Shown in pieces: positions 19,150-63,139 of a DNA stretch of 64,000 nt. Made by a program: the position numbers and the translations under genes. The notes beneath the pieces were generated by a model. The model searched no databases. It had not been told where the DNA came from and saw nothing but the letters and a program-made list of their open reading frames with translations. How positions within the stretch are numbered: position 1 is the first letter of the stretch; each line of letters opens with the position of its first letter. Source of the DNA: a virus. The stretch covers positions 19,932 through 83,931 of the IMG/VR virus record IMGVR_UViG_3300026484_000333, one strand, 5' to 3'.

Positions 19150-20508
19150 CTAAACTTTTAAGTCGGGACTGCCCCCTAATGGGTCTGTACTTCCCATACT
19201 GCTTGGTTTATTGTTACTTTGGTTTTCAGAATTATTAGTATTATTTTCTGAATTATTTTGGCTCATTGCAACTAAATCTTGAAAGAATTGTGCTTCACTA
19301 CCTGTTAAGAAGGCAGGTACAATATTCTTATCTGCACCTTCAAAATCCATTTCCGGTAAATCAACCAAATCCCTTGCTTCATTTAATGTAGCAAGTCCTG
19401 TTGCAAACAATGTTCTTGCACTGTCAGCTTTTACATCTAAAGCAGTATCAAGTTCAGTAATTCTTCCAAAGTCAAATTCAAAATGATATTTTCCATAACC
19501 AAATTGTTTTCCTAAAAATAAATTAATTTGGTCTTGTATTCTATAAAGATAAGGTCTAACTGCGGTATTAAACACAACTTTCATTAATTCCTGTGGTTTT
19601 CCAGCACTGTTTGCCTCACCGCCTAAAACAAGTGCGTTTAGTTTGAAAACTCTTAAAACTCTTTTTTCACTTATATTCATACTATCTAAAAGCATTGCGT
19701 CTTTAGGACTTGCTTGAACGGTTTTATAATCCATTTTGGCGGGTAAGACTGCTATACCTCTCCTCTCACTACCGCCTTTTCCATATAAAGCGTTAAATTG
19801 TTCTCTCAATTCTTCAATTTGTTGTGGAGTTAAGGCATATTCGGCTTTTAAAATACCAGCTAAAATTACACTGCCCTCATAAAACTCTTGTAGGCTATCA
19901 ATTGCATTTTTTTCCAACTTTAATGTATCAAGCAAAGGTGCTACGCTTGGTAGTCCATAATAAGCATTGTTTAGAGTTGGATTTATAATCCAAATAAGTT
20001 CGTTTTCTTTATAAGCAATCTTATCATTATAAATATAGCCTTTTATAAATTTAGTAGCGTCTGGAACAACTTTAACATTATGAGGTTGAGTTAAAAACCA
20101 AGTTTCATAACTTCCTTTTACATTTTCAAAGGTTAAAGGGGCTACACCTGAAAGCAACAAACCTTGAATTGCAAGTTCAATTGTTGTTCCCCAAGACCAA
20201 AATGGATTAGGTCTATATTCCCATTCTCTTAATTTTTTGTCTTTAACAGGAAGTTTTTTACCTGATTTATCTAATTGATATAAGCGTGGAACTGCTTGTC
20301 CTCCTGCTTTAGCAATATAATCAACTGCACTAAAAACAAGTTCAGTTGTATGGAATGTATTTTCCATAGCACTTGTAGCTAATACACCGTTTCCATCTTT
20401 ATAATCTTCAATGATTTTTTTGTTTGCTTTTGTAGCTTTAGTGTCCATATAAATTAACGTTTCTTTATTTTGTTGAGGCTGTTTTTTAAAAAAATCAAAA
20501 AAACCCAT
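19150..20508 (-). CDS. Portal protein (HK97 family)
   Basis: YYGLPS...AGILK...SPKDAMLL...GLATLNEARDL motifs. Confidence 0.93.
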   Translation of the reverse strand: MGFFDFFKKQPQQNKETLIYMDTKATKANKKIIEDYKDGNGVLATSAMENTFHTTELVFSAVDYIAKAGGQAVPRLYQLDKSGKKLPVKDKKLREWEYRPNPFWSWGTTIELAIQGLLLSGVAPLTFENVKGSYETWFLTQPHNVKVVPDATKFIKGYIYNDKIAYKENELIWIINPTLNNAYYGLPSVAPLLDTLKLEKNAIDSLQEFYEGSVILAGILKAEYALTPQQIEELREQFNALYGKGGSERRGIAVLPAKMDYKTVQASPKDAMLLDSMNISEKRVLRVFKLNALVLGGEANSAGKPQELMKVVFNTAVRPYLYRIQDQINLFLGKQFGYGKYHFEFDFGRITELDTALDVKADSARTLFATGLATLNEARDLVDLPEMDFEGADKNIVPAFLTGSEAQFFQDLVAMSQNNSENNTNNSENQSNNKPSSMGSTDPLGGSPDLKV

Positions 20509-20549
20509 TTGTTTTCCTTTTTAATTTATTATATAACATATATCAGCTT

Positions 20550-20725
20550 AAAGGAAAACAATAAAAACAAAGGAGAGAAAAATGAATAGATTGATTGAAT
20601 TATGAGCTGGAAGCTCAATTGAAGTTTATACAGAAATAAACTTCAATTGAACGCCCATCTCAGGCGTTCTATATTTAACACCCACATCAGGTGTTATAAA
20701 TTGAACGCCCACATCAGGCGTTCTA
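20550..20725 (-). ncRNA. Putative late structured ncRNA: three 27-nt hairpin repeats, two further hairpins and an anti-RBS tail
   Basis: CCGATATAA motif at 20729-20737 with no ORF behind it; hairpins start at 20649, 20676 and 20703 with compensatory base changes; 14-bp inverted repeat CAATTGAAGTTTAT/ATAAACTTCAATTG. Confidence 0.65.
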
Positions 20726-20741
20726 CTGTTATATCGGAAAA

Positions 20742-26216: not shown

Positions 26217-26245
26217 TTGACAAAATGTAAAAAATCCTTTATAAT
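26217..26245 (+). promoter_or_regulatory. Sigma70 promoter
   Basis: TTGACA-N17-TATAAT upstream of 26277. Confidence 0.85.
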
Positions 26246-26276
26246 TTCAATATAAATAAAAACAAAGGAGAATAAA

Positions 26277-26924
26277 ATGGCATATTTTGATGGGATTAAA
26301 GTAGGTGATAAAGTTTGGCATTTTGAATATGGATGGGGAACAGTTGTAGAGTTGTTAAAAGCTTCTGATTTAGATGGAAAAAATTTTAATCCTTTAAATG
26401 ATTTTGATTTAATAGAAATTAAATTTGATAATGTTTATTTTGGGTGTGGGTATTTTGATTTGAATGGAGTGGCTTTTTACTCCAATGGTAATCAAACATT
26501 ATTTTGGGGTGAAGTTAAATTTGAAATCCCAAAAAAGCCTAAAATTGAATTAAGAAAAGAAGAATATCTTATAGATGTTGTATACAATAAAATTCATTAT
26601 GATAAAGATTTTAAAATGTTTGATAATTTTAACCATTCTTTAACAAGGAATGATAAAGAAACAGCTGAAAAAGCTTTTAGAACTATTAAAAGATTTACAA
26701 GACTTTTGGCTCTTCGTGACCAAGAATGCCCTAATAGTAAAGGCTATGAATTTAAGCCTAATAAAGAAAATTATTATATTTTTTACAATGAATTAGAGAA
26801 TAAGTATGAATATGATTATGAATGTATTTATAATCATTTAGATGTTTACTTTAATACAGGAGGAGATGCCCAAAAAATTTGTAATATTTTGAATTCAGGA
26901 AAATTTAATTTAGAAGGAAAATAA
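26277..26924 (+). CDS. Hypothetical early protein (SH3-like N-terminus)
   Basis: KVGDKVWHFEYGWGTV; this domain is shared with the N-terminus of 51252-51935. Confidence 0.75.
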   Translation: MAYFDGIKVGDKVWHFEYGWGTVVELLKASDLDGKNFNPLNDFDLIEIKFDNVYFGCGYFDLNGVAFYSNGNQTLFWGEVKFEIPKKPKIELRKEEYLIDVVYNKIHYDKDFKMFDNFNHSLTRNDKETAEKAFRTIKRFTRLLALRDQECPNSKGYEFKPNKENYYIFYNELENKYEYDYECIYNHLDVYFNTGGDAQKICNILNSGKFNLEGK

Positions 26925-28052: not shown

Positions 28053-28176
28053 AAAACGTGATTATAATATTTTAAAAATTTATCGTAGGGAAATAAACTG
28101 CCGACCAAAAGTTGTTAAAAATAAAAAGAAATATACAAGAAAAATAAAACACAAAAATCAATCTTTTATGACTTGA
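28039..28176 (+). CDS. Small very basic peptide, ArfA-like C-terminus
   Basis: AAGGA RBS then MLKIKKRDY...RPKVVKNKKKYTRKIKHK. Confidence 0.5.
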   Translation: MLKIKKRDYNILKIYRREINCRPKVVKNKKKYTRKIKHKNQSFMT

Positions 28177-28679
28177 TTTAGAATGTTTACAAAAACATTT
28201 CCTGTTGTTCCTAATTTTTTTCTTTCTTCTTCTTTCATAACATCATCAAGCATTTTGGCAACATCTAAAATATCCTTGTCAGTAGCGTTGGCAAAATCAC
28301 CGCCCTGTTTTTCAATTTGTTCAATTTTATCTTCTAATGTCCGCATAACAACCGAAACTACAACATTTTTGGCGTTTTCTTTTATTTCCTTCATAATTGC
28401 ATTGTAGAAATCTTTAACATAAGGTTTTGATAAAGTTCTGCTAATATATTGATAAGGAAGACCAAGTTCTTTTGCTATTCTTTTATTGCTATATCCACGA
28501 ACTTTCATTTCAACTACATATCTTTCGATTGTAGATAAAGGTTTGTCAAAATCAACATTTGTAAATTCAAGCAGTTCTGTTTTTATTTCTCCTTTAACAT
28601 TAGCATCAGGCAAGTTGGAAACTTCATCTTGGCTAACAACAGGAACTGCTTCAATTTCCTTTATTTTTTCAGACATCAA
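28158..28679 (-). CDS. Probable terminase small subunit
   Basis: HTH (GYSNKRIAKELGLPYQYISRTL) followed by helical oligomerisation region; near terL on the same strand. Confidence 0.65.
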   Translation of the reverse strand: MMSEKIKEIEAVPVVSQDEVSNLPDANVKGEIKTELLEFTNVDFDKPLSTIERYVVEMKVRGYSNKRIAKELGLPYQYISRTLSKPYVKDFYNAIMKEIKENAKNVVVSVVMRTLEDKIEQIEKQGGDFANATDKDILDVAKMLDDVMKEEERKKLGTTGNVFVNILNQVIKD

Positions 28680-28899: not shown

Positions 28900-28965
28900 T
28901 TTATTTTCCTTGTTGTATAAAATTTAATCAATTTATTATATCAAATTTAATCAATTTGTCAAAAT

Positions 28966-29907: not shown

Positions 29908-30269
29908 TTTTGTTTTTTAATTGCTTTTGGTAATTTATATTTAAAGAAATGATATATTTTTACAGCATAATAAAAAAGATAGCTTGTAAATTTTCCAACT
30001 TTTAAATCAAGTAAGCAATTTAGAAAGCATTTGTCCGCTTTATCATAAAGCTCTAAATCACATAAATAATCGTGTAAAATGGCACAAGGCAAATAATCAG
30101 GTCGATATTTTGTATAATTAAACAAATAAGCTATATAAGGCACAGAAGCCCCGTCGCTTACAAAACCTTCAGGAATTATAATATCTTTATATTTAACTTT
30201 CTTTTTAAGTTTTACCTTATTATTTTTAAGTGGTTGAAATATAAAGTCACTGTATTTTAATCTGCCCAA
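29898..30269 (-). CDS. DUF1353-like protein
   Basis: IPEGFVSDGASVP...AILHDYLC...AD..F motif. Confidence 0.85.
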   Translation of the reverse strand: MGRLKYSDFIFQPLKNNKVKLKKKVKYKDIIIPEGFVSDGASVPYIAYLFNYTKYRPDYLPCAILHDYLCDLELYDKADKCFLNCLLDLKVGKFTSYLFYYAVKIYHFFKYKLPKAIKKQNQL

Positions 30270-30889
30270 GTTTCCCCCTTTAACATTCTACATATAGTAG
30301 AATGTTGTGTATTAAATATTCTGGCTAATTTACAACAAGAATATCCTAAATTATGCAAATCTCTAATAGCGTTGTTTCTTTCTTCATTTAACACATTAAT
30401 TCTTGTGTTTCTTGCTTGTAATTTATAAGTTGCCAACCTGCAATTGTTTGGCTCATAATTACCGTTAACATTTATTCTATCAATACTTAACTTTTTTGCA
30501 ATTTGTAATTTTTCATCTTCCGATAAATTTTCTTTAATATTGTTTTTTACATAATTATCAAGTTCTTTTAAAAACCATTTTTTAAATAATAAATAATTAT
30601 TTTTCCATTCATCACAAATTTTAATACCCCTTCCTCCATAATTTTTATAAGCTTTACTTTTTGTATTGTAACACCTCTTTAAAATATCTTTATATCTACT
30701 ATAAATAAAATGATATTTGGAGCTACTAACACTATCCCCTTCAACAGAACTATTACTCTTTATACAACCACAAGAATATCTTTTCTCACCATAATCTTTT
30801 CTAACTTGAATTACTTTTCCACAAAAAGGACATTTAAAATCACTATAAATTTTACCTTTTTTTCTAATATCATTTCCAACATATATCAT
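30257..30889 (-). CDS. HNH homing endonuclease
   Basis: SCGC, YGGRGIKICDEW and SIDRINVNGNYEPNNCRLA motifs; C-terminal HTH. Confidence 0.9.
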   Translation of the reverse strand: MIYVGNDIRKKGKIYSDFKCPFCGKVIQVRKDYGEKRYSCGCIKSNSSVEGDSVSSSKYHFIYSRYKDILKRCYNTKSKAYKNYGGRGIKICDEWKNNYLLFKKWFLKELDNYVKNNIKENLSEDEKLQIAKKLSIDRINVNGNYEPNNCRLATYKLQARNTRINVLNEERNNAIRDLHNLGYSCCKLARIFNTQHSTICRMLKGETWAD

Positions 30890-30958: not shown

Positions 30959-31477
30959 TTATTCCTCCCAATTTATAGCGTCAAGTTCTTCTAAACTTAC
31001 CGCTTTTTTTGCTTTTTTTCTTAATGCTATTTTTTTATTCCATAATGTTGAATAATTAACACCAAGTTCTGTTAGCATTTTTTTAATTTCATCAACTTCT
31101 ACTTCGTGGTCTTCATCATAAAAATCACCGACAATTGTTACTTTTAAACCTAAATCAAGTGCCAATTCATATCCGGCTTTTAATTTTTGAATATCATCAA
31201 AATCTGCGTCCATTGTAATTCCATTTGAACAAGTAAAACCATTTTTTATAAAATAATTAAAAGCAGATTTTATTTCTTCAATTTTCAATTCTTTTGCTTT
31301 TTCTAAAATTAGTTCTTCATCAGGAATAATATTTCCATTTTCATCAAGTTTATAAAAAGGAAATCTTGCTTCTGGCAGTTTATTTGTTAAAACAAAACCT
31401 TCCCTATCTTTATAATCTTCTTCGTTTTCAACTTCAACAGGTATTAATCTTCTTTCTTCATTTATAAAAAATAACAT
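30959..31477 (-). CDS. Tail fibre assembly-like protein (DUF4376 type)
   Basis: AKELKIEEIK...SLEELDAINW pattern; follows the fibre genes. Confidence 0.75.
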   Translation of the reverse strand: MLFFINEERRLIPVEVENEEDYKDREGFVLTNKLPEARFPFYKLDENGNIIPDEELILEKAKELKIEEIKSAFNYFIKNGFTCSNGITMDADFDDIQKLKAGYELALDLGLKVTIVGDFYDEDHEVEVDEIKKMLTELGVNYSTLWNKKIALRKKAKKAVSLEELDAINWEE

Positions 31478-32454
31478 TATTTTCCTCCTTCGGCTTGATA
31501 AATTAAATTAGCTTCGCTTTCTGTCAAGTTTCTTGTAAAAATTCTCAAATTATCAACTGCTCCTGCTTTTCTATAACCACTGCTTCTGCCCCAACCAAAA
31601 ACGCATAGATAATTAGTAAAATACATATTATATTTTGCAATTTTACTGCAATTTTGTTTTAAAGTTTGTTTTTTTCCATTAATAAAAATATCACCATATT
31701 CAAATTTTCTAAAATTTACTGAAACGTGAATCCATTTATTTTTATATTTATTAATATCAACTCCAAAATTATCGCCATTGGCGGAATTGAATCCAAGTTT
31801 TCCACTGCTACAAACATATAAATCGCAATTATAAAAGCCAATAGGCATTTGATAATTTACTCCATTCCATTTAAACCAAAAGCTGATATTTAATTCTTTT
31901 GTATCTTTATTAAAAGGTAATTTATTAATTTTAAGCTGTCCTCCGTTAGAATAAACAGCTAATTTTTCTTTGCCTTCTACATATGTTATGCTTCCGCTTT
32001 TTGTAGCTTCATATTTTCCGCTTACATCAACCAAGCTACTATTAAATTTAAACAAGGCAATTCCGCTTTTATCATCAAAAAAATCAACTTTATCAGCTGG
32101 GGGAATATTCATAATTACCGTGCCTTTATCACCAATCCAAACATTATCATCTTTATCATTTTTTAAACATTCAAATTTTTCTAAAGTTTTAATATTTAAC
32201 CAAACAAAACCTTTAAATAAAGGATTGGTTGTTACCTGCGGATTATTTAAGCCGATAACATTTGCTATATTTTTAGGAAATTTGTCAGCAATTTTTAATT
32301 TGCCTTGATTTATTAAATCACGAATTTTTTGATTTTCTACATTTTCTTTTAAAAAGCACTTATAAATAAAATTTTGTTTATCAACATTTAAAACTACAAT
32401 TAAATCATCTTTTTTACCTGAAACTTTACTATCTAAATTTTCTACTAACATCAA
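31477..32454 (-). CDS. Receptor-binding/fibre protein with LamG domain
   Basis: ISFWFKW, WIHVSV, IFING and VDNLRIFTRNLTESE motifs. Confidence 0.8.
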   Translation of the reverse strand: MMLVENLDSKVSGKKDDLIVVLNVDKQNFIYKCFLKENVENQKIRDLINQGKLKIADKFPKNIANVIGLNNPQVTTNPLFKGFVWLNIKTLEKFECLKNDKDDNVWIGDKGTVIMNIPPADKVDFFDDKSGIALFKFNSSLVDVSGKYEATKSGSITYVEGKEKLAVYSNGGQLKINKLPFNKDTKELNISFWFKWNGVNYQMPIGFYNCDLYVCSSGKLGFNSANGDNFGVDINKYKNKWIHVSVNFRKFEYGDIFINGKKQTLKQNCSKIAKYNMYFTNYLCVFGWGRSSGYRKAGAVDNLRIFTRNLTESEANLIYQAEGGK

Positions 32455-32466
32455 AACTCCTTATTT

Positions 32467-34029
32467 TTAATTAATTTGGTATCCCCAAAGTTCGTCTTTA
32501 TAAACATTGCCGTTTCCGTCCGTCCAATAAACAACAAAACTTGAATTATCGCTTTCTTTCACCCCGCCTATAACAAATGCAGGTTTATCTAATGGCTCTA
32601 GCAATGCAGTAGCATTATCATCATTTGCTATAAAATTGATAAACAGCATATTTCTTTTTGTATCATTGCCATCACCATCATTATTAATTAATTTTAATCC
32701 ATTAGGCAAGTTGTAAAATTTAATGCTGTCCTCGTCGCAATCAACTTCCATTCTTGTTGCGTCAGCTATGCTTGTATATTTGGAACTTGTAGCTCTGATA
32801 TGTAGATGTTTTTTGCCGTTTGAATCGTTATACCAATCAATTCTGGCTTGTGCTGGATAAGCACTACCCAAACCAAAATTATAACCCACCCAATTATCTG
32901 CACTTGTTGTGTTTTTGTAAGCTTGATATGTTCCCATATCACCAGCCACAATATCATAAACATTAATATTTGAGCTTGTAACATCAACGCCTAAACCAAG
33001 CGTTCCTGTAGTCCAATTATATTTTAAGCTTTTTCCTAATGTGGAACTTCCGTTATAGTTATCATCTTGGCTTACAACAACATCATAATTTACATAATCA
33101 TTAGTTTTAACAACTAACGTTTTCCATTCGTTTGAATTGCCTTTTCTTCTAACAATAATTTCTTCTGCGGAATTATCATAAATTAACTGCCCACCTTTTG
33201 GGTATTCATTGATATCGTTTTTCCAATCTTCAATTTTTTGGTGAACAACATCTTGTGAATTTGCAGGTAAATAAATCCAGCTATCGCTCCATAAAACAAA
33301 ACCTGAATATTTAATTTCTTTATTTGCTATTAATGAGGTTTTACCTTTAAACCAACCAAAATGCCCGTTTGAATTATAAATAGCAAGATTTTGATTTTCA
33401 TAATCAATCCAATAATATCCATCTTCGGGCGTTCCTTGTCCTGTAGCCGGGTATCCTGTAACATAATTAATGCGGTTTTCTATAGAACGATTAATATCCC
33501 AACCAAAACTACCACGAGCTTTAATCGCATTTGAGCGTCCACAATATAAAGTATAATTGTTTGTATTACCATCAATAGCTATACCAGCTCCAATAACGCC
33601 ATATTGATTAACAACAAATTGTACTGATGATGTATAAGCTTGTATAACTTTTTCGCTATGTGTAAAAATTCTCAACGGCGTAACACCCTTGTTATCTACA
33701 GTTGTATCAATATTTAATGCTGAATTTGTGCCTTGTGGGTTATGTTGTAAATAAGGGCTTGTTGTTGCTTTATCACCATTAATTTTGTATAAAAACTTTC
33801 CATTTTCACCTTCAATCGTTGTTCCATATTTTAATTTTAAAAGCTGTCCGTTATCAATCGCATCCGTTACGCTTACCCCGACAACATCAGCAGGATTAGC
33901 TACCAAGACATAATGCTCAAATTCATCTTGGTCAACCTCAACTTTTATAATGTCACCTTTTTTAAATTTATCAAGTTCTTCAGATTGAATATCAACCACA
34001 GCTATTTCTGTGTGAGTAAAAATTGCCAT
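32467..34029 (-). CDS. Fibre-like structural protein
   Basis: Gly/Asn/Thr-rich beta protein; N-terminus resembles that of 20742-21791; late motif at 34061-34068. Confidence 0.6.
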   Translation of the reverse strand: MAIFTHTEIAVVDIQSEELDKFKKGDIIKVEVDQDEFEHYVLVANPADVVGVSVTDAIDNGQLLKLKYGTTIEGENGKFLYKINGDKATTSPYLQHNPQGTNSALNIDTTVDNKGVTPLRIFTHSEKVIQAYTSSVQFVVNQYGVIGAGIAIDGNTNNYTLYCGRSNAIKARGSFGWDINRSIENRINYVTGYPATGQGTPEDGYYWIDYENQNLAIYNSNGHFGWFKGKTSLIANKEIKYSGFVLWSDSWIYLPANSQDVVHQKIEDWKNDINEYPKGGQLIYDNSAEEIIVRRKGNSNEWKTLVVKTNDYVNYDVVVSQDDNYNGSSTLGKSLKYNWTTGTLGLGVDVTSSNINVYDIVAGDMGTYQAYKNTTSADNWVGYNFGLGSAYPAQARIDWYNDSNGKKHLHIRATSSKYTSIADATRMEVDCDEDSIKFYNLPNGLKLINNDGDGNDTKRNMLFINFIANDDNATALLEPLDKPAFVIGGVKESDNSSFVVYWTDGNGNVYKDELWGYQIN

Positions 34030-45250: not shown

Positions 45251-45519
45251 GGATTTTTTATAAAAATTTTCAAAAATTTTTTAATTTTTATTCTTGTATA
45301 TACATTATATATAATAAAAAATTTTTTTTATTGTTTTAATTTTTTAGCTCAATATTATAAGAAATAAGTGTCCAGCACTAAAAATTTTCTTATATTTTAC
45401 TTTATAAAAAATTTAAAAATTTTTCAAAATTTTCCTATATTATACTATTACCGCTTTTTCAGCAAATTTGGCAAGTTTAATTTCTATTACTATTACCACT
45501 TTTTTAGTAGCTTTCAGAA

Positions 45520-45617
45520 AGTTTAAAAGGGAGGCACAAAGGCAAAAGCCTGAAATCTCGGAGGCACAAATGAAATTCTATAAGTAAGGAGGCACAATTT
45601 CCTTTTTGGCTTTTGCC
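45520..45617 (-). ncRNA. Putative sRNA with three anti-Shine-Dalgarno motifs (UUGUGCCUCC)
   Basis: Own consensus promoter at 45624-45652 with no RBS-led ORF behind it; 10-bp closing stem GGCAAAAGCC/GGCUUUUGCC; motifs at 45530-45539, 45560-45569 and 45588-45597. Confidence 0.75.
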
Positions 45618-45623
45618 ATTCAA

Positions 45624-45652
45624 ATTATAAAAAATTTTTAACTATTTGTCAA
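45624..45652 (-). promoter_or_regulatory. Consensus sigma70 promoter of the putative sRNA
   Basis: TTGACA (45652-45647)-N17-TATAAT (45629-45624). Confidence 0.88.
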
Positions 45653-45693
45653 GAGATTTTTTACATTTTTGTAAAAAATTTTTATAAAAAACA

Positions 45694-48732: not shown

Positions 48733-48786
48733 TTTTCTCTCCTTTGTTTTAAAATTTTCCACCATAATAATCAATAACTAAATTAA

Positions 48787-49999: not shown

Positions 50000-50498
50000 T
50001 GTTAAATCTTTCGATTATTTCTGGCGTATTTTCTTTTCTTAATTGAATATCAAATATTTCCAAATTAATTGTTTGGGTATCCAAAAAGACCTTATAATAA
50101 TTAAATTTTTTTTGAATGTCTTTATCTTTTAAGAGGAAATGTACTTTTTTATAAGTATCTTTTAGCATAGGCTTGACATTATATATAGTATCAAACCAAA
50201 AATAATAAAGAATATATTTAATAATATGCTGTCCTATTTTTTTAAATTTTGATTGTTTATTACCTGTAGCCTCATAAATAAAAACCAAATTCCCCTTTGC
50301 CAAATGTAATAACATATCATCTGGCACATTTAATAAAAATTTTTTATACGCTTTTTGCTCTAATAAAGAAGATTGTAGTCTACAAAAAGAAATATTAGAA
50401 ATTGGATTTATAAAAATATGTCTATGCTGAAAAGCCTCTAACCCTGCTGTTAAATTAACATACTCTTTTACTATCATTTCTTTTACCCTTCTTTTCAA
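49974..50498 (-). CDS. Hypothetical protein
   Basis: ORF track; YVNLTAGLE...RLQSS. Confidence 0.65.
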   Translation of the reverse strand: MKRRVKEMIVKEYVNLTAGLEAFQHRHIFINPISNISFCRLQSSLLEQKAYKKFLLNVPDDMLLHLAKGNLVFIYEATGNKQSKFKKIGQHIIKYILYYFWFDTIYNVKPMLKDTYKKVHFLLKDKDIQKKFNYYKVFLDTQTINLEIFDIQLRKENTPEIIERFNNEFKIINN

Positions 50499-50961
50499 TT
50501 ATAATTTTATCTAATTGTTTTATACTTTCGTGAAAGGATAAATTATTTCCAAAATAGCCTTCTGCAAAAGTAATATTTTTAATTGAACTTAAATTTAATT
50601 TATCATAAGGCTGGTAAATAACCACAAATTCATCTCCTCCTATTCTAAAAATCCTACCACTAACATTTTGTTCTTTCATTAAATTTTTAATTTGCTTAAC
50701 AACATTAATTATAAATTCATCTCCTGCTTCATAACCTTGTTCTCTATTTAACAAATGTAAATTATCCAAATCAATCAAAATTAAATTATAAAACCATTTA
50801 TTTTTAATCTTAATTTGCTCTTTATATTCTGTTTTTAAAAGTTCGTCAAGATAATGTCTGTTATAAACCTGTGTTAAATAGTCTTTTTTAAGGCTTTCAA
50901 TTTCCTTTTTTAAATCAGAAATTATTTCCTCTAAAAGCTCTACTTTCTCTTCGCAAGTCAT
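50455..50961 (-). CDS. GGDEF-domain protein (diguanylate cyclase-like)
   Basis: Coiled coil, DYLTQVYNR, IDLDNL..LN..GY.AGD and FRIGGDEF motifs. Confidence 0.9.
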   Translation of the reverse strand: MTCEEKVELLEEIISDLKKEIESLKKDYLTQVYNRHYLDELLKTEYKEQIKIKNKWFYNLILIDLDNLHLLNREQGYEAGDEFIINVVKQIKNLMKEQNVSGRIFRIGGDEFVVIYQPYDKLNLSSIKNITFAEGYFGNNLSFHESIKQLDKIIIEKKGKRNDSKRVC

Positions 50962-52679: not shown

Positions 52680-52724
52680 TTTTCTCTCCTTTATTTTTAT
52701 TGTATAGAAATTATAAAAAATTTT

Positions 52725-53619
52725 TTATGATTTGTCAAGCTCTTTTAGATGTTTTTCAATTTCTTTTTCATCAATATTATTTGGTAAGGTTATATTTTCT
52801 TTGTAATTATAACCCAAATCAAGCTCTGCTTCTAATTTTACAATAGGCTCTTCATATAAACCATTATTATAATTTCCTATCATACATTTAATTAAATTAT
52901 CATTTACAAATTTAATTATTTTCGGGTTTAATTTTATATATAATAATATGCTATCGTGGATTGTATTAACAATTTTCACTTCATCAATTAATCCAGCTTC
53001 TTCAATTTTCTTTTGAAAACAAACTATCGCATAAAGCGTTAAAATATTCCCACTTTGAATGTTAAAGTTAGTCGCTACCCTTTGTGCTTTTTCTTTTATT
53101 TGACTGCTCCAGCTTTTAATATCCGGTATTAACAGTCTTAATCCTGAATACCTTGAAACTAAATAACCTTGTTTTTCTGTTTGTTTAATGATACTATCTT
53201 GATATTCTTTTGTAACTTTATATAAAGTCCAATAAGCCTCATATATTTCTTTTCCTACTAAATGCTCACTTGCACCATAACTCATACCAAAAGTATAAGG
53301 CTTTCCTTTTTGTCTAATTTCAGGATATTTTTTCTTAATAGAGTTTATTACATTAATTCTATATGTTTCTCTATCAATTTCCTTTTTATTTTTATAATTA
53401 TCTGGTAACAGACTTTCACTAAAATAATCAACTTCTTCATTTTCTAATTCAACCTCATAAAATTTTGTATCAATTTTAAGTTTTTCTATTTTTTCTTTAA
53501 TATCAAGCATTTCATCAGAAAAATAGTAAAAGGCGTTCTGACAATGACCATCCACACCTTTTAAAAATACATCTAATTTGGCGGGGTCTTTACTTGCGTT
53601 TGCTATTAATCTATCTTCG
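52725..53619 (-). CDS. polA: Family A DNA polymerase, exon 2
   Basis: EDRLIAN, motif B RQKGKPYTFGMSYG, NFNIQS and motif C TIHDSI. Confidence 0.93.
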
Positions 53620-53908
53620 CTTACCGTTACGCAGGACGCCACTCCTGCTCCACCCTTTCGGGTGGTGTCGGACTATATCATCTCCCACAGCATTACCTGT
53701 TTGGGAGGCGGGTGTTTCGACAGGTCAGTCGCTTACCTGCCTACTCTACTCGGTGGCTTTTTAAACCCCTTTCGATAGTCTCTGCACCTTCCTATTCTGT
53801 TAAAGAATAGGCTTGGCTCAGGATTGCCCTCAGCATTACCTGTTAGGGTTTCCCTGAATTAACCCGCTTTTCTATCAGAGTTTCCTCTGATAGCCCCCCA
53901 TTCTGTTA
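53620..53908 (-). mobile_element. Group I self-splicing intron (289 nt, IC3-like core, no endonuclease ORF) in polA motif A
   Basis: Core elements P AAUUCAGGGAAA, Q AAUCCUGAGC, R GUGCAGAGACUA and S GAUAUAGUCC. Exon GCCCU pairs with IGS GGGGC (U-G at the splice site). Terminal G at 53620; splicing restores DYSA-L-EDR. Confidence 0.93.
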
Positions 53909-55701
53909 AGGGCAGAATAATCACTTGCACCAAGTAAAAACCCATCAGGTGCTATAAATAATTTTTTAATTTCTTTTCCATACTTACTACCACTTGGTAT
54001 TGTTTGCATATTAATAACCCCGCTACTACTTAATCTACCACTAATTGTTCCGCTTTGATTAAAGTTGGCAAAAATTCTATAATCATTTGGTGTAACTTCA
54101 ACACACCCCTCAATCATATTTTTTAAATAAGCGGTTTTTATTTTTTCACTTGCTTGATATTCACTTATTAAGTTTAATACTTCTAATTTTTCCTCATCTG
54201 TAATTGTTTTTTTCCATTCTTCTAAAACATCATTACCTGTTGAAGGCTCTCCAGCTTTTGTAGTTTCAATAACAGGCAAATCCATAATTTCAAAAAATAG
54301 TATTTTCTTTTGTTGACTACTGCTTGGATTGAACGGTTTTAAAAATTCCTCCCAATTTTCCTTTTTATTTTTATGTGTTTTATTATATTTTTCTTTTGCC
54401 TGTAATGCTATAACTTTTTCAGTAGCTTTGATATAAACATTTTCTCTTAATTTTGCCAAATCTCTTTCAACTATTTCCTCCATTTCTTTATAGAATTCTT
54501 TAGTTCGCTCTAAATCAATTCTCATACCATTCATTTTCATTTTATTTAAAGCAAAGCCAATATCTCTAAACTTCTTATAAGTTTCTATAAAACCTTCTTG
54601 CTTTAACTCTTTCCATAAATCTTTAAAAATTTTGTAGTTTGCCACAACGTCAATATTGTTATATGTGGCAACTTTTTCAAAATCATACTCAATCAGTTTG
54701 CTTTGGTCAATTTCTTTATCCCAATCTCCAAAATATTTAAAAGCCAACTGTTTTAAACTCAAACTTTTTCTTTCAGTGGAATTATAAAGCAAATAAGCCA
54801 TTAATAAAGTATCATCTATTTTAAATTGATTTATTAAAGGCTCTTGATTTATTTGAAAGCTAAAATCTCTCATAATTTCGTGGACTAAAAAAGTTAAGTC
54901 AAAGCCTAAAAAATTATGCCCTATAATTACGCCTTCATAATTTTCAAAAAACTCTTTTAAGTACTGTTTAATCAATTGATAATTTTCTTCATTATGATAT
55001 TGAGGATGTATAGCTATACAAGCGGGGTTTTTATCATCTTTTGTAAAACTAATTGTAAGAAGTCGGTTTTTATACCACTCAAGCCCTGTTGTTTCAATAT
55101 CACACACTACAGCTTTTGCTTTTAATAATTCTTCTAAATATTGTTTTATTTCATCCGGTTGTTTTAAAAAAGAATGATTAATTTCAATATTTTCAAATTT
55201 ATCTTTATATTCACCCTTTTCAAAGGCTTTATAAGCCTCAAAACTTAATTGCAGTTCTCTTGCTCTGTTAGGATATTTTTCAACAATAATAGGATTTAAA
55301 AAAGGTACAACATTTATTTGGGATAGGTCAAAAATTTCTTTATTTTTTCCACTCCCAAATGTAAATTCAGCACCTTTAATAACTCTACCAAAATTATTAC
55401 TAAAGTTTTTATCTTTTGCAATTTCCTGATAAGTATCTGAATGCCCTATTAACCATACATCTATGCCCATAATTTGTGAATACTCAAAAACCTCTTCTAT
55501 AACTTCTTTTAAAACTGCTTTTTTAATTCTGCCTTTTTTAGGTACAGGTATTGATACAAAAGCAAAATCTTTTACATCCAAATTAAAAGGTTGTAAAAGC
55601 TGTTTATGTAAAAAACCATAATTTTCTTTAAAGCAGATATTATCTGGTAACCAGATAATTGCTTTTGGGTTTGCATTGTTGTAAGTAAATAAATAGTTCA
55701 T
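53909..55701 (-). CDS. polA: Family A DNA polymerase, exon 1 (N-terminal domain, 3'-5' exonuclease, start of polymerase domain)
   Basis: CDIETTGL, GHNFLGFDL, FNPSS, TISGRLSS..NMQTIP and ASDYSAL motifs. Confidence 0.95.
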
Positions 55702-55702
55702 T

Positions 55703-56152
55703 TTAATCTCCTTTTATATTAATTTCAATAATTATTTTATTATTATTTTCTTTATTTATGTTTATTGAGTAATTTTTATTTTCTTCATAATTTTTATAAG
55801 GTTTTAATAAACAATCCATAGAAATAAACAAATCGTTTAATTCATAAACACAACCATCATCTGCAGTAAATAAAATACTACTAAAATTGGCATCTTGTGG
55901 AGGTCTATTATCAAAACTAATACTTTTTATTTTAAGAGGGCTTTTTCTTTTATCAAAATAAAATTTGCAACCAGTCAATTTATTAAGTTCTTCCCATTTT
56001 GAAAATTCAATTATAAAAAAGTTTTCTGGTAAAGGCTTTTTTAAAAAAAGCCATCTATCTAAATTATAGACTTTTAAGTCTTTTAGATTAATTAGTAACC
56101 TCATTCTTTTTCTTTCTCGATAAAGAGGGTCATTTTCTGTAAAAATTCTCAT
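55703..56152 (-). CDS. Hypothetical protein
   Basis: AAAGGAGAGAAAA RBS; TTGCTT-N17-TATAAT promoter upstream. Confidence 0.7.
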   Translation of the reverse strand: MRIFTENDPLYRERKRMRLLINLKDLKVYNLDRWLFLKKPLPENFFIIEFSKWEELNKLTGCKFYFDKRKSPLKIKSISFDNRPPQDANFSSILFTADDGCVYELNDLFISMDCLLKPYKNYEENKNYSININKENNNKIIIEINIKGD

Positions 56153-56220
56153 TTTTCTCTCCTTTGGTTTAATTTTACAGTAGTATTATAAAGAATTTTT
56201 TATAAAAAAGCAAGAGAAAA

Positions 56221-62110: not shown

Positions 62111-63139
62111 TTAACTCCTTTCTAAACTTAATAAAACTTTTTCAATAGCTTTGCCAAAAGTTAAAGTAGAATATTGATTTTTAATGTTTAATAAATTGTT
62201 TATTCTTTTTGGTTGTAAAGCATAAGCTCTCTCTATTCTTGTTTTATCATATTGTAACCCAAAACCACAAACCACACAACCTGTTCTTTTTTCTATTTCA
62301 TAAGCTTTTGAGATTTTAACATTATACTTATTTATATAATCCCAAATATCTTTTTCTGTCCAAAAGTAAATAGGATAAACTTTGTAGTCGTGTTTGTAAC
62401 CATTCTTTAAAATACTTTGAAGTCTTAAACTACTTTCTTCTGTCATTAAACCTACAAAACTAACTTCCTTTGTTTTATTTTGATAAATTTTAAAAGGATT
62501 TTTCTTTAAAACATTACAACAATAATTAGTCAAAACTATTCTATCATTAATTTTTAAACCTAATTCTTTTCGTTTTTTAGTTATAACATCAAAATAATAC
62601 TGTTCTTTTTCTTTTAAAACTTTATACCAACTCTCTTTTTTTACCACTTCTTTTGGCGGATTAAAATAATGTTTTGCAACTTCTTCGTCTAAAAGCCATA
62701 ACCACTTATTTGAAAATTTATACTTATTTTCTCCAAAAAAACTCATATGATAAATACTTTTTAAATGTTTGTTTCCTCTAAATTGTCTCATTATTTCTTT
62801 TTGTAGTTGGCTTATTTCTTTACTAACAAGAGGGTAACCCTCTGTTTTTAAAATTTGACTAAAACTTTTTTTAGGTTTTAACCAAACTACATTTTCTGTT
62901 TCTTTTACAAATTTTATTATTTCCTTATGTTCATTTGTAGTATTAAAAAACACTGCTTTTACTTCAGGATATAAACTTCTAACTAAATGCAAAACTACTG
63001 TACTGTCTTTTCCACCACTAAAACTCACATTTACATTCCCATTATTTTCTTGATAAACCTCTCTTATAATTTGTTTAGATAATTTTATTTTTTCTTCTAA
63101 TGGTAAATTCTTTAATTGTTCTAATTCTTGATATGTCAT
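62111..63139 (-). CDS. PAPS-reductase-family protein
   Basis: VSFSGGKDSTV, CC..LKK.P and RTGCVVCGFG motifs. Confidence 0.9.
   Translation of the reverse strand: MTYQELEQLKNLPLEEKIKLSKQIIREVYQENNGNVNVSFSGGKDSTVVLHLVRSLYPEVKAVFFNTTNEHKEIIKFVKETENVVWLKPKKSFSQILKTEGYPLVSKEISQLQKEIMRQFRGNKHLKSIYHMSFFGENKYKFSNKWLWLLDEEVAKHYFNPPKEVVKKESWYKVLKEKEQYYFDVITKKRKELGLKINDRIVLTNYCCNVLKKNPFKIYQNKTKEVSFVGLMTEESSLRLQSILKNGYKHDYKVYPIYFWTEKDIWDYINKYNVKISKAYEIEKRTGCVVCGFGLQYDKTRIERAYALQPKRINNLLNIKNQYSTLTFGKAIEKVLLSLERS

Follow-up and report, generated by a model that had tools for sequence, protein, structure and literature searches.

A conserved array of three hairpins and an anti-leader tail behind an orphan late-promoter motif in an uncultured vent phage

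An array of three 27-nt hairpins, followed by a longer hairpin and by a tail that is antisense to early gene starts, lies on the minus strand upstream of the portal gene of an uncultured vent phage. The comparison with two related phages supports a structured element that is under selection on its pairing and is probably read from the minus strand. The best reading is a late structured non-coding RNA or a long portal leader; judged from sequence, the structured RNA element is new, and three close genomes are known to carry it. The earlier note on this DNA had interpreted the array as a protein-binding non-coding RNA. The covariation, the strand bias of the G.U pairs and the orphan promoter motif bear out a structured, non-coding element at the RNA level, on the minus strand and behind a late-type promoter; a protein partner was not found among the genes scanned.

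Location and sequence of the array

The genome (G000) is an IMG/VR record of 83,931 bp with 27.6% GC and identical ends of 127 bp. The window, that is, the whole stretch of 64,000 nucleotides that was analysed, corresponds to bases 19932-83931 of this record, and positions are given as window positions. The genes around the array are all on the minus strand, in the order terL, ORF272, ORF623, ORF349, a gap, portal, prohead protease, and major capsid protein. The gap between ORF349 and the portal gene is 233 nt long and holds the array, which starts 19 nt past the stop codon of ORF349. The placement between terL and portal given in the earlier note is loosely right, but three ORFs (272, 623, and 349 amino acids) intervene between terL and the array. 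None of the three has a Pfam family, and their sole PHROG match, to ORF623, is weak and of unknown function. No small terminase was recognised beside terL. The features of the region, with their state in the two related IMG/VR phages (G001 and G002, with portal identities to G000 of 88% and 94%, respectively), are as follows.

25969-24611, minus strand: terL
20730-20737, minus strand: P1, the late-promoter motif (CYGATATA) in an orphan copy that reads TTTCCGATATAAC; also present in G001 and G002
20703-20723, minus strand: hairpin 1, GAACGCC(UG)-AUG-(UG)GGCGUUC; pair 5 is G:C in G000, A:U in G001 and G002
20676-20696, minus strand: hairpin 2, UAACACC(UG)-AUG-(UG)GGUGUUA; pair 1 is U:A in G000 and G002, A:U in G001
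20649-20669, minus strand: hairpin 3, GAACGCC(UG)-AGA-(UG)GGCGUUC; pair 5 is G:C in G000 and G001, A:U in G002
20617-20648, minus strand: long hairpin of 13 bp (14 counting the base shared with hairpin 3) with a 6-nt loop; 42 of 42 cells paired
20603-20616, minus strand: small hairpin and variable linker, GAGCU-UCC-AGCUC; not conserved
20581-20602, minus strand: stretch antisense to the first codons of a Rep-like gene (34408), 21 of 22 positions matching; G000 only
20558-20586, minus strand: anti-leader core UUCAUUUUUCUCUCCUUUGUUUUUAUUGU, antisense to the common leader, Shine-Dalgarno (SD) sequence and AUG of the early sigma70 cassettes
20550-20561, minus strand: UUGUUUUCCUUU, which complements the portal SD region (20509-20520) exactly over 12 nt
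20539-20546, minus strand: P2, the late-promoter motif of the portal gene
20508-19150, minus strand: portal gene (ATG at 20508; PF04860, 9.8e-39)

The three units at 20649-20723 follow a period of exactly 27 nt and are separated by 6-nt linkers, without spacers. Each has a 7-bp stem (9 bp with the U.G and G.U pairs) and a conserved UGNNNUG loop. A repeat search returned three copies of 27 nt with identities of 100, 74, and 93%, and TRF reported a repeat at 20645-20722 (period 27, 2.9 copies, score 107). In the middle unit, two pairs depart from those of the flanking units (G:C to U:A and G:C to A:U), each with compensation in the opposite arm. The earlier note had described both the exact period and the compensatory changes, and both were confirmed, the period from the sequence, the repeat search, and TRF alike. 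The pattern GAACGCC-N7-GGCGTTC with up to three mismatches has three matches in the window, two in the array and one, unrelated, at 32985, versus 0.13 expected; none of 100 shuffles reached three. In the whole 83,931-bp genome, 5-bp stems around TGNNNTG are limited to the three units and one AT-only match.

Two further hairpins had been noted behind the array. The long one, with arms CAATTGAAGTTTAT (20616-20629) and ATAAACTTCAATTG (20636-20649), is kept in both relatives. The small one (TGAGCT-GGA-AGCTCA, 20603-20617) is present in G000 and is not conserved: only 4 bp remain in G001, and it is lost in G002.

The motif CYGATATA occurs 14 times in the window versus 2.47 expected, a count reached by none of 100 shuffles. 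Eleven of its 12 minus-strand copies precede an ORF start by 30-45 nt (terL, ORF272, portal, protease, major capsid protein, tape measure, and other late genes); P1 is the sole minus-strand copy in the window without an ORF behind it. Its motif CCGATATA lies 6 nt upstream of hairpin 1, so that the array does sit, as had been claimed, directly behind a late-promoter core with no ORF, and its 13-nt core TTTCCGATATAAC is identical to the copy before the major capsid gene. The layout of the late motifs, orphan copy included, is the same in G001 and G002. Canonical TTGACA-N17-TATAAT promoters precede replication and other non-structural genes. We infer from the gene content that the CYGATATA sites are late and the sigma70-type sites early, and we name them so throughout.

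ORF623 and ORF349 have neither a late-promoter motif of their own nor a terminator. The terminator scan found no intrinsic terminator on the sense strand between the array and P2; in this region it reported just one, at unit 3 and on the plus strand. On the sense strand, the sequences behind the hairpins are AAUUUA, AAUAUA, and AAUUGA, and no U-run follows any hairpin, the 13/14-bp palindrome behind the array included. The idea that these hairpins form an intrinsic terminator was rejected on these grounds. With no such terminator between the array and P2, the putative transcript may be a discrete small RNA or a long leader that runs on into the portal gene.

Conservation and covariation of the hairpins

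The array is kept unit for unit and in the same place in G001 and G002, with orthologous units, exact 27-nt phasing, and a copy number of three in all three genomes. Across the nine units, 81 of 81 pair cells are standard pairs, and none of 500 shuffles reached the observed pairing or covariation score. Pair 1 is GC in six units, UA in two, and AU in one, and pair 5 is AU in six and GC in three; they are never mixed. Two pairs are changed on both sides in this nine-unit alignment, a count without statistical significance (177 of 500 shuffles). When the whole block is aligned by orthology across the three genomes, all 120 cells pair and six pairs are changed on both sides, a result reached by one of 500 shuffles; when the partners are slid by 1-3 columns, the pairing drops to 30-48%. 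Taken by itself, the long hairpin shows pairing in 42 of 42 cells and three double changes over the three genomes, a result that 35 of 500 shuffles equal. Because the readable comparison consists of three close genomes, two of them from one dataset, these changes represent few independent events (about four double changes in the small hairpins and three in the long one). The loop ends UG...UG are invariant in nine of nine units while the stems covary, and this combination suggests that the cap may be recognised by a protein.

The wobble pairs favour the gene-sense (minus) strand. The U.G/G.U cap can be added to all nine small stems on this strand only, and the long hairpin of G001 contains one G.U and one U.G pair on it, versus A.C and C.A on the other strand. 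The fold energies of the minus and the other strand (-68.5 versus -63.8 kcal/mol, z -6.9 versus -7.2) do not separate the two. RNAalifold prefers a nested fold that unites units 1 and 3. This fold was rejected: one of its pairs is broken in G001, where units 1 and 3 differ from each other, and the local hairpins therefore fit the data better.

Among 40 portal-related viral loci, the array was found in G001 and G002 only; in portal relatives that are more distant (37-59% identity), the neighbour of the portal gene is terL or a divergent gene, and the array is absent. The single-unit pattern matched 88 loci in viral contigs, with three units only in the two relatives. For a looser two-unit pattern in metagenome and genome contigs, the matches listed (at least 120 each) contained only unrelated repeats, such as the Nitrosopumilus-type CCACCTGGAATGGGTGG coding repeat. 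INPHARED phages had no match to a 5.4-kb stretch. Contigs from two runs of another study, among four DNA runs compared, cover the array at about 85-92% identity. The earlier note had staked its reading on conserved pairing at homologous loci and had proposed a covariance model from related phages. The pairing is conserved in the three genomes, as described above, and the model built from the block, with its six double-changed pairs, found only the three arrays in 525,521 bases (the window, 29 related loci, G001, and G002). Another match of the model, L388 (E = 0.044), proved on reading to be unrelated hairpins within an early gene.

The Infernal comparison that the earlier note had also proposed returned no family: Rfam 15 at gathering threshold had no match in the whole window, a search that includes the phi29 pRNA only insofar as its family is part of the library. 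To that extent, a packaging RNA found no support. Below threshold, the best hit in the 301-nt region was to a microRNA model, with 21.6 bits versus a threshold of 72, and ARAGORN detected no tRNA or tmRNA.

Complementarity of the tail to early gene starts

Minus-strand positions 20586-20558 are the exact antisense of a sequence common to the first genes of the early cassettes, comprising the leader, AAGGAGAG, the spacer, and ATGA. This is the extended complementarity to translation starts that is looked for in trans-acting antisense RNAs: matches of 17-29 nt were found to at least seven gene starts in G000, to five in G002, and to at least two in G001. The matches to gene starts in G000 measure 29 (one mismatch), 22, 21, 23 (one mismatch), 18, 17, and 17 nt. 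Those to early gene starts measure 27, 26, 25, and 24 nt in G002, all exact, and 27 (two mismatches), 17, 17, and 25 nt (two mismatches) in G001. The best RNAduplex energies in the three genomes (-38.5, -35.4, and -29.4 kcal/mol) are all with early or early-type starts. For starts behind the late motif, the medians are -12.6, -13.2, and -12.9 kcal/mol, and none lies below -18.7. The hairpin loops are not complementary to the early-leader targets.

The tail differs between the genomes exactly as the leaders do, with C/T at one leader position and CAAAGGAGAG versus CAAAAGGAGAA. It reads AAAAACAAAGG in G000, AAAAATAAAGG in G002, and ACAAAAGGAGAA in G001, each variant matching the leaders of its own genome. 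The preference is modest when the longest match within a genome is compared to the best match across genomes (22 versus 20, 27 versus 25, and 17 versus 17 nt). For an RNA whose end lies before P2, predictions leave the anti-leader mostly free, with mean unpaired probabilities of 0.90, 0.76, and 0.83 in the three genomes (0.90 in G000). A point against reading much into the matches is that, in a genome of 27.6% GC, U/C-rich stretches in general pair with A/G-rich ribosome sites.

In an RNA of P1 length, the portal SD is predicted to be mostly paired (unpaired probabilities of 0.08, 0.24, and 0.28 in the three genomes). The masking partner is the exact 12-nt complement in G000 and the anti-leader itself in G001 and G002. 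Read on the plus strand, the tail resembles a gene start. This look-alike has no sigma70 promoter, and its mini-ORF of 7, 11, and 10 codons encodes a peptide that is not conserved; a functional mini-ORF was rejected.

The match between the tail and the leaders could have arisen through gene conversion among the repeated cassettes, or it could be a recombination scar. The latter is considered because the early cassette recalls the PeSLs of T4-type phages, which are repeated early promoter/stem-loop cassettes scattered in the genome (PMC2839356). Repeats of this kind can recombine and leave orphan copies, and the early cassette here is likewise a repeated regulatory unit. Unlike the PeSLs, the copy in the tail has the opposite orientation and is missing both promoter and coding part; it consists of the ribosome footprint only and stands behind a late promoter in three genomes.

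A proposed late antisense RNA and its alternatives

The reading that we prefer, and to which we give about an even chance, is that the array forms the 5' domain of a late RNA made from P1, the tail of which would silence early operons, while the hairpins would stabilise the RNA, hold a protein, or both. We infer the firing of P1, the end point of the RNA, its action on early mRNAs, and the role of the hairpins from the sequence features described above. P1 would fire alongside the late genes, and the RNA would start at hairpin 1 or within a few bases of it. With a start at the first hairpin, the 5' end would lie hidden within four consecutive stable helices. The RNA would fold into three local 9-bp hairpins 27 nt apart and the 13-bp hairpin, followed by an unstructured U/C-rich tail. 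The hairpin block may stabilise the RNA as a structured 5' end that resists 5'-dependent RNases, and it may also, or instead, hold a protein. Late in infection, the tail would pair across the ribosome sites of the early operons and cover both SD and AUG. The pairing would block translation, and a double-strand RNase could cut the resulting duplexes of 22-29 bp; through both effects, the early operons would be shut off. P1 transcripts that read into the portal gene would carry a masked SD, as predicted above, and we propose that the portal protein would for this reason be translated mainly from P2 transcripts. For 5' protection as such, one hairpin would suffice.

Short untranslated RNAs rich in stem-loops that pair with a ribosome site or a leader include P22 sar, lambda OOP, P1 c4, and ColE1 RNA I, the last with three stem-loops and loops of 6-7 nt. 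Most of these RNAs are cis-encoded opposite a single target. The proposed RNA would act in trans on several operons via their common leader. The outcome would be similar to the action of T4 RegB, an endoribonuclease that cleaves early mRNAs within GGAG (PMC3014915). With RegB, the phage inactivates its own early mRNAs at SD sites and spares the late ones, an effect that is only proposed here; RegB is a protein made early, whereas the proposed agent here is an antisense RNA made late.

An extended version of the preferred reading would make the element a bipartite timer RNA, in which the triple hairpin is a dock or decoy for a host RNA-binding protein or nuclease, bound via the U.G/G.U cap, and is fused to a seed for the early leaders; such an RNA would silence the early programme and at the same time disarm or recruit a host factor. 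We regard this version as unlikely, though it deserves mention.

One alternative is a multivalent decoy. Three hairpins of identical format, produced abundantly at the late stage, would titrate a host RNA-binding factor: a type III toxin-like endoribonuclease, as phage pseudo-ToxI does, a Cas6-type repeat binder, as Racrs do, or a host RNase. The tail would then be incidental or serve a second function. Invariant loop ends over covarying stems suit sequence-specific recognition, and the phasing is exact in three genomes. The order of promoter, tandem array of 2.9 units, and palindrome is that of the antitoxin half of a type III locus; in ToxI, CptI, and TenpI, a promoter is followed by some 2-5 short RNA units in tandem and by a palindrome, and type III antitoxin arrays comprise 1.9-5.6 repeats of 31-62 nt, then a short palindromic terminator, with the toxin gene downstream (PMC3401426). 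Phage TE carries expandable ToxI-like repeats, its pseudo-ToxI being a phage-borne array without a toxin (PMC3475682). Racrs are repeat mimics: small structured phage RNAs right behind a promoter and not beside cas genes (PMC10651486). A promoter motif within 250 bp upstream is present here too, and no cas family was found among 47 ORFs scanned against Pfam. The copy number of 2.9 falls into the type III range, but the 27-nt unit lies outside 31-62 nt, the units are plain hairpins rather than the pseudoknot of ToxI, the palindrome lacks a U-run, and the gene downstream is the portal gene. A search with the ToxN model (PF13958) found no toxin gene in G000, G001, or G002, and the antitoxin reading raised in the earlier note finds no support in these comparisons. 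Without spacers the units are not a CRISPR array, and three tandem copies are not the solitary repeat, defined by its likeness to a CRISPR repeat, that characterises Racrs. The copy number fixed at three and the orthologous units are unlike an arms-race array. No candidate partner was found encoded nearby: no RNA-binding family was detected among 30 ORFs scanned, and CsrA-type GGA loops are absent by eye. ORF349 has three homologues, all within the three genomes, and its AlphaFold2 model (pLDDT 43, all-beta) is too poor for a fold search; the ESM Atlas returned nothing usable for ORF349 or ORF623. On balance, a decoy is rather improbable. A purely cis-acting long leader of the portal mRNA, with 5' stabilising hairpins and an anti-SD that tune the portal dose against P2 transcripts, would treat the likeness to early leaders as a by-product. 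It is in keeping with the lack of a terminator ahead of the portal gene, the exact complement of the portal SD at 20550-20561, the predicted pairing of that SD in all three genomes, and the position of P2 within the loop of this pairing. However, the early leaders, with 22-29 matching nt (AUG+2 included), fit the tail far better than the portal site does, and late starts reach -17.5 kcal/mol at best versus -38.5 for early ones. The 12-nt element is exact in G000 only, with G001 and G002 pairing via the anti-leader, and three phased hairpins are left unexplained; we regard this explanation, too, as rather improbable.

Three further readings were considered. The array might be the 3' end module of an ORF623-ORF349 operon, with read-through RNA trimmed back to the hairpins, which would protect against 3' exonucleases or slow the polymerase as an insulator or non-canonical terminator. 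The 19-nt distance from the ORF349 stop codon and the lack of a late motif or terminator for ORF623 and ORF349 would agree with this, and stacked hairpins are a common form of 3' protection. But a full late-promoter motif, invariant in three genomes, stands between the stop codon and the array, there is no sense-strand U-run, and conserved loop ends are unneeded for such a role, which leaves this reading very unlikely. We judge a site at the DNA level to be very unlikely as well, be it a set of three palindromes that serve a dimeric regulator as operators, a pac/cos site for packaging, or hairpins for single-strand initiation. Three 21-bp palindromes and a large one adjoin packaging genes, the small terminase is not recognised beside terL, and hairpins of single-stranded DNA tolerate G.T pairs too. 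Against this, nine of nine palindromes are symmetric over 7 bp with every change mirrored, a symmetry that a protein site does not need; the wobble pairs in the long hairpin speak for one strand; comparable sites are absent from the other 11 late promoters of the window; and the 27-bp spacing is a non-integral number of helical turns. The contigs of the three genomes also end at different genome positions, so there are no fixed genome ends here. Finally, 27 nt equal nine codons, and one frame reads (R/I)TP(D/E)(V/M)GV(Q/K)(F/Y/L) three times. In G000 and G002 this frame stays open through the array (52-53 codons), and it places the stem changes G/A and C/T at the third position of codons (ACG/ACA, GGC/GGT). 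In G001, however, it is stopped after unit 2 and just upstream; it has no ATG and no SD, the late-promoter motif lies inside it, and the two synonymous changes always occur together (nine of nine units). A small repeat protein was rejected because of the stop codons in G001 and the lack of a start signal, the former refuting it in practice, and its probability is close to nil.

To our knowledge, most regulatory RNAs described for phages come from a small number of model phages, and they usually have one target each. If the late antisense RNA is real, several early operons may be turned off by one late RNA via their common leader. This would be a simple, testable RNA-based switch from early to late expression, in a phage with likely hosts that may be without the usual RNA chaperones. 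A new RNA family would be added as well, with a structured module of a kind absent from Rfam. A second anti-Shine-Dalgarno RNA candidate is present in G000, and RNA-level control may thus be a general habit of this phage group.

Early operon starts and a second candidate antisense RNA

A near-identical start cassette is found at at least five to eight early operons, genome-wide. Its layout is a sigma70-type promoter (TTGACA-N17-TATAAT), followed by an A-rich leader, roughly 20 nt long, and then AAGGAGAGAAAAATG. The cassette is also present, as genome-specific variants, in both related phage records that carry the hairpin array (G001 and G002). Examples in the window, together with a short non-coding stretch that lies behind a promoter of the same type, are:

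26217-26280, early cassette
52680-52740, early cassette
48735-48770, early cassette
56150-56190, early cassette
45500-45660, minus strand, short non-coding stretch behind a sigma70-type promoter

The non-coding stretch contains three copies of TGTGCCTCC, which are complementary to the GGAGGTACA ribosome site of the adjoining operon, one G.U pair included. The stretch is a candidate for a second anti-SD RNA, the first candidate being the tail that lies behind the hairpin array.

Candidate readers of the late promoter

Two candidates for the factor recognising the CYGATATA promoters are small proteins with weak helix-turn-helix (HTH) matches:

28158-28679, minus strand, 173-aa ORF, weak HTH match
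30257-30889, minus strand, 210-aa ORF, weak HTH match

The matches are to the GerE/LuxR type (E = 0.0011) and to HTH_38 plus a zinc ribbon. For the 173-aa ORF, a variant of the late motif, TGATATA, is located at 28937-28943, 32 nt upstream of an in-frame ATG; no copy of the late motif was seen before the 210-aa ORF.

The split DNA polymerase and other protein domains

Four further coding features of the window are:

52725-55701, minus strand, family A DNA polymerase in two ORFs
50455-50961, minus strand, 168-aa phage protein with a GGDEF (diguanylate cyclase) domain (E = 9.4e-18)
31477-32454, minus strand, 325-aa late protein with a LamG-type lectin domain (PF13385, 4.7e-10)
62111-63139, minus strand, PAPS-reductase/QueC-like protein (PF01507, 1.7e-21)

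Of the polymerase, a 608-aa ORF encodes the exonuclease together with the beginning of the polymerase domain; the remainder falls in a 305-aa ORF. The 232-nt gap between them contains GC-rich pairing segments, and an Rfam search at the gathering threshold found no intron in it. The match of the 325-aa protein to a clostridial neurotoxin receptor-binding domain was sub-threshold (E = 0.0015) and reflects only a shared lectin fold. The PAPS-reductase/QueC-like protein hints at a DNA-modification pathway.

Repeats upstream of the portal gene in distant relatives

In two of the more distant portal-related loci, other repeats take the place of the hairpin array before the portal gene:

L359, 5700-6000, perfect inverted repeat of about 45 bp
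L360, 5780-5960, a pair of direct repeats, each some 45 nt long

The repeats in both loci have in common a core resembling GGTCTTGGGACAC, which is also found in the loci L352-L358.
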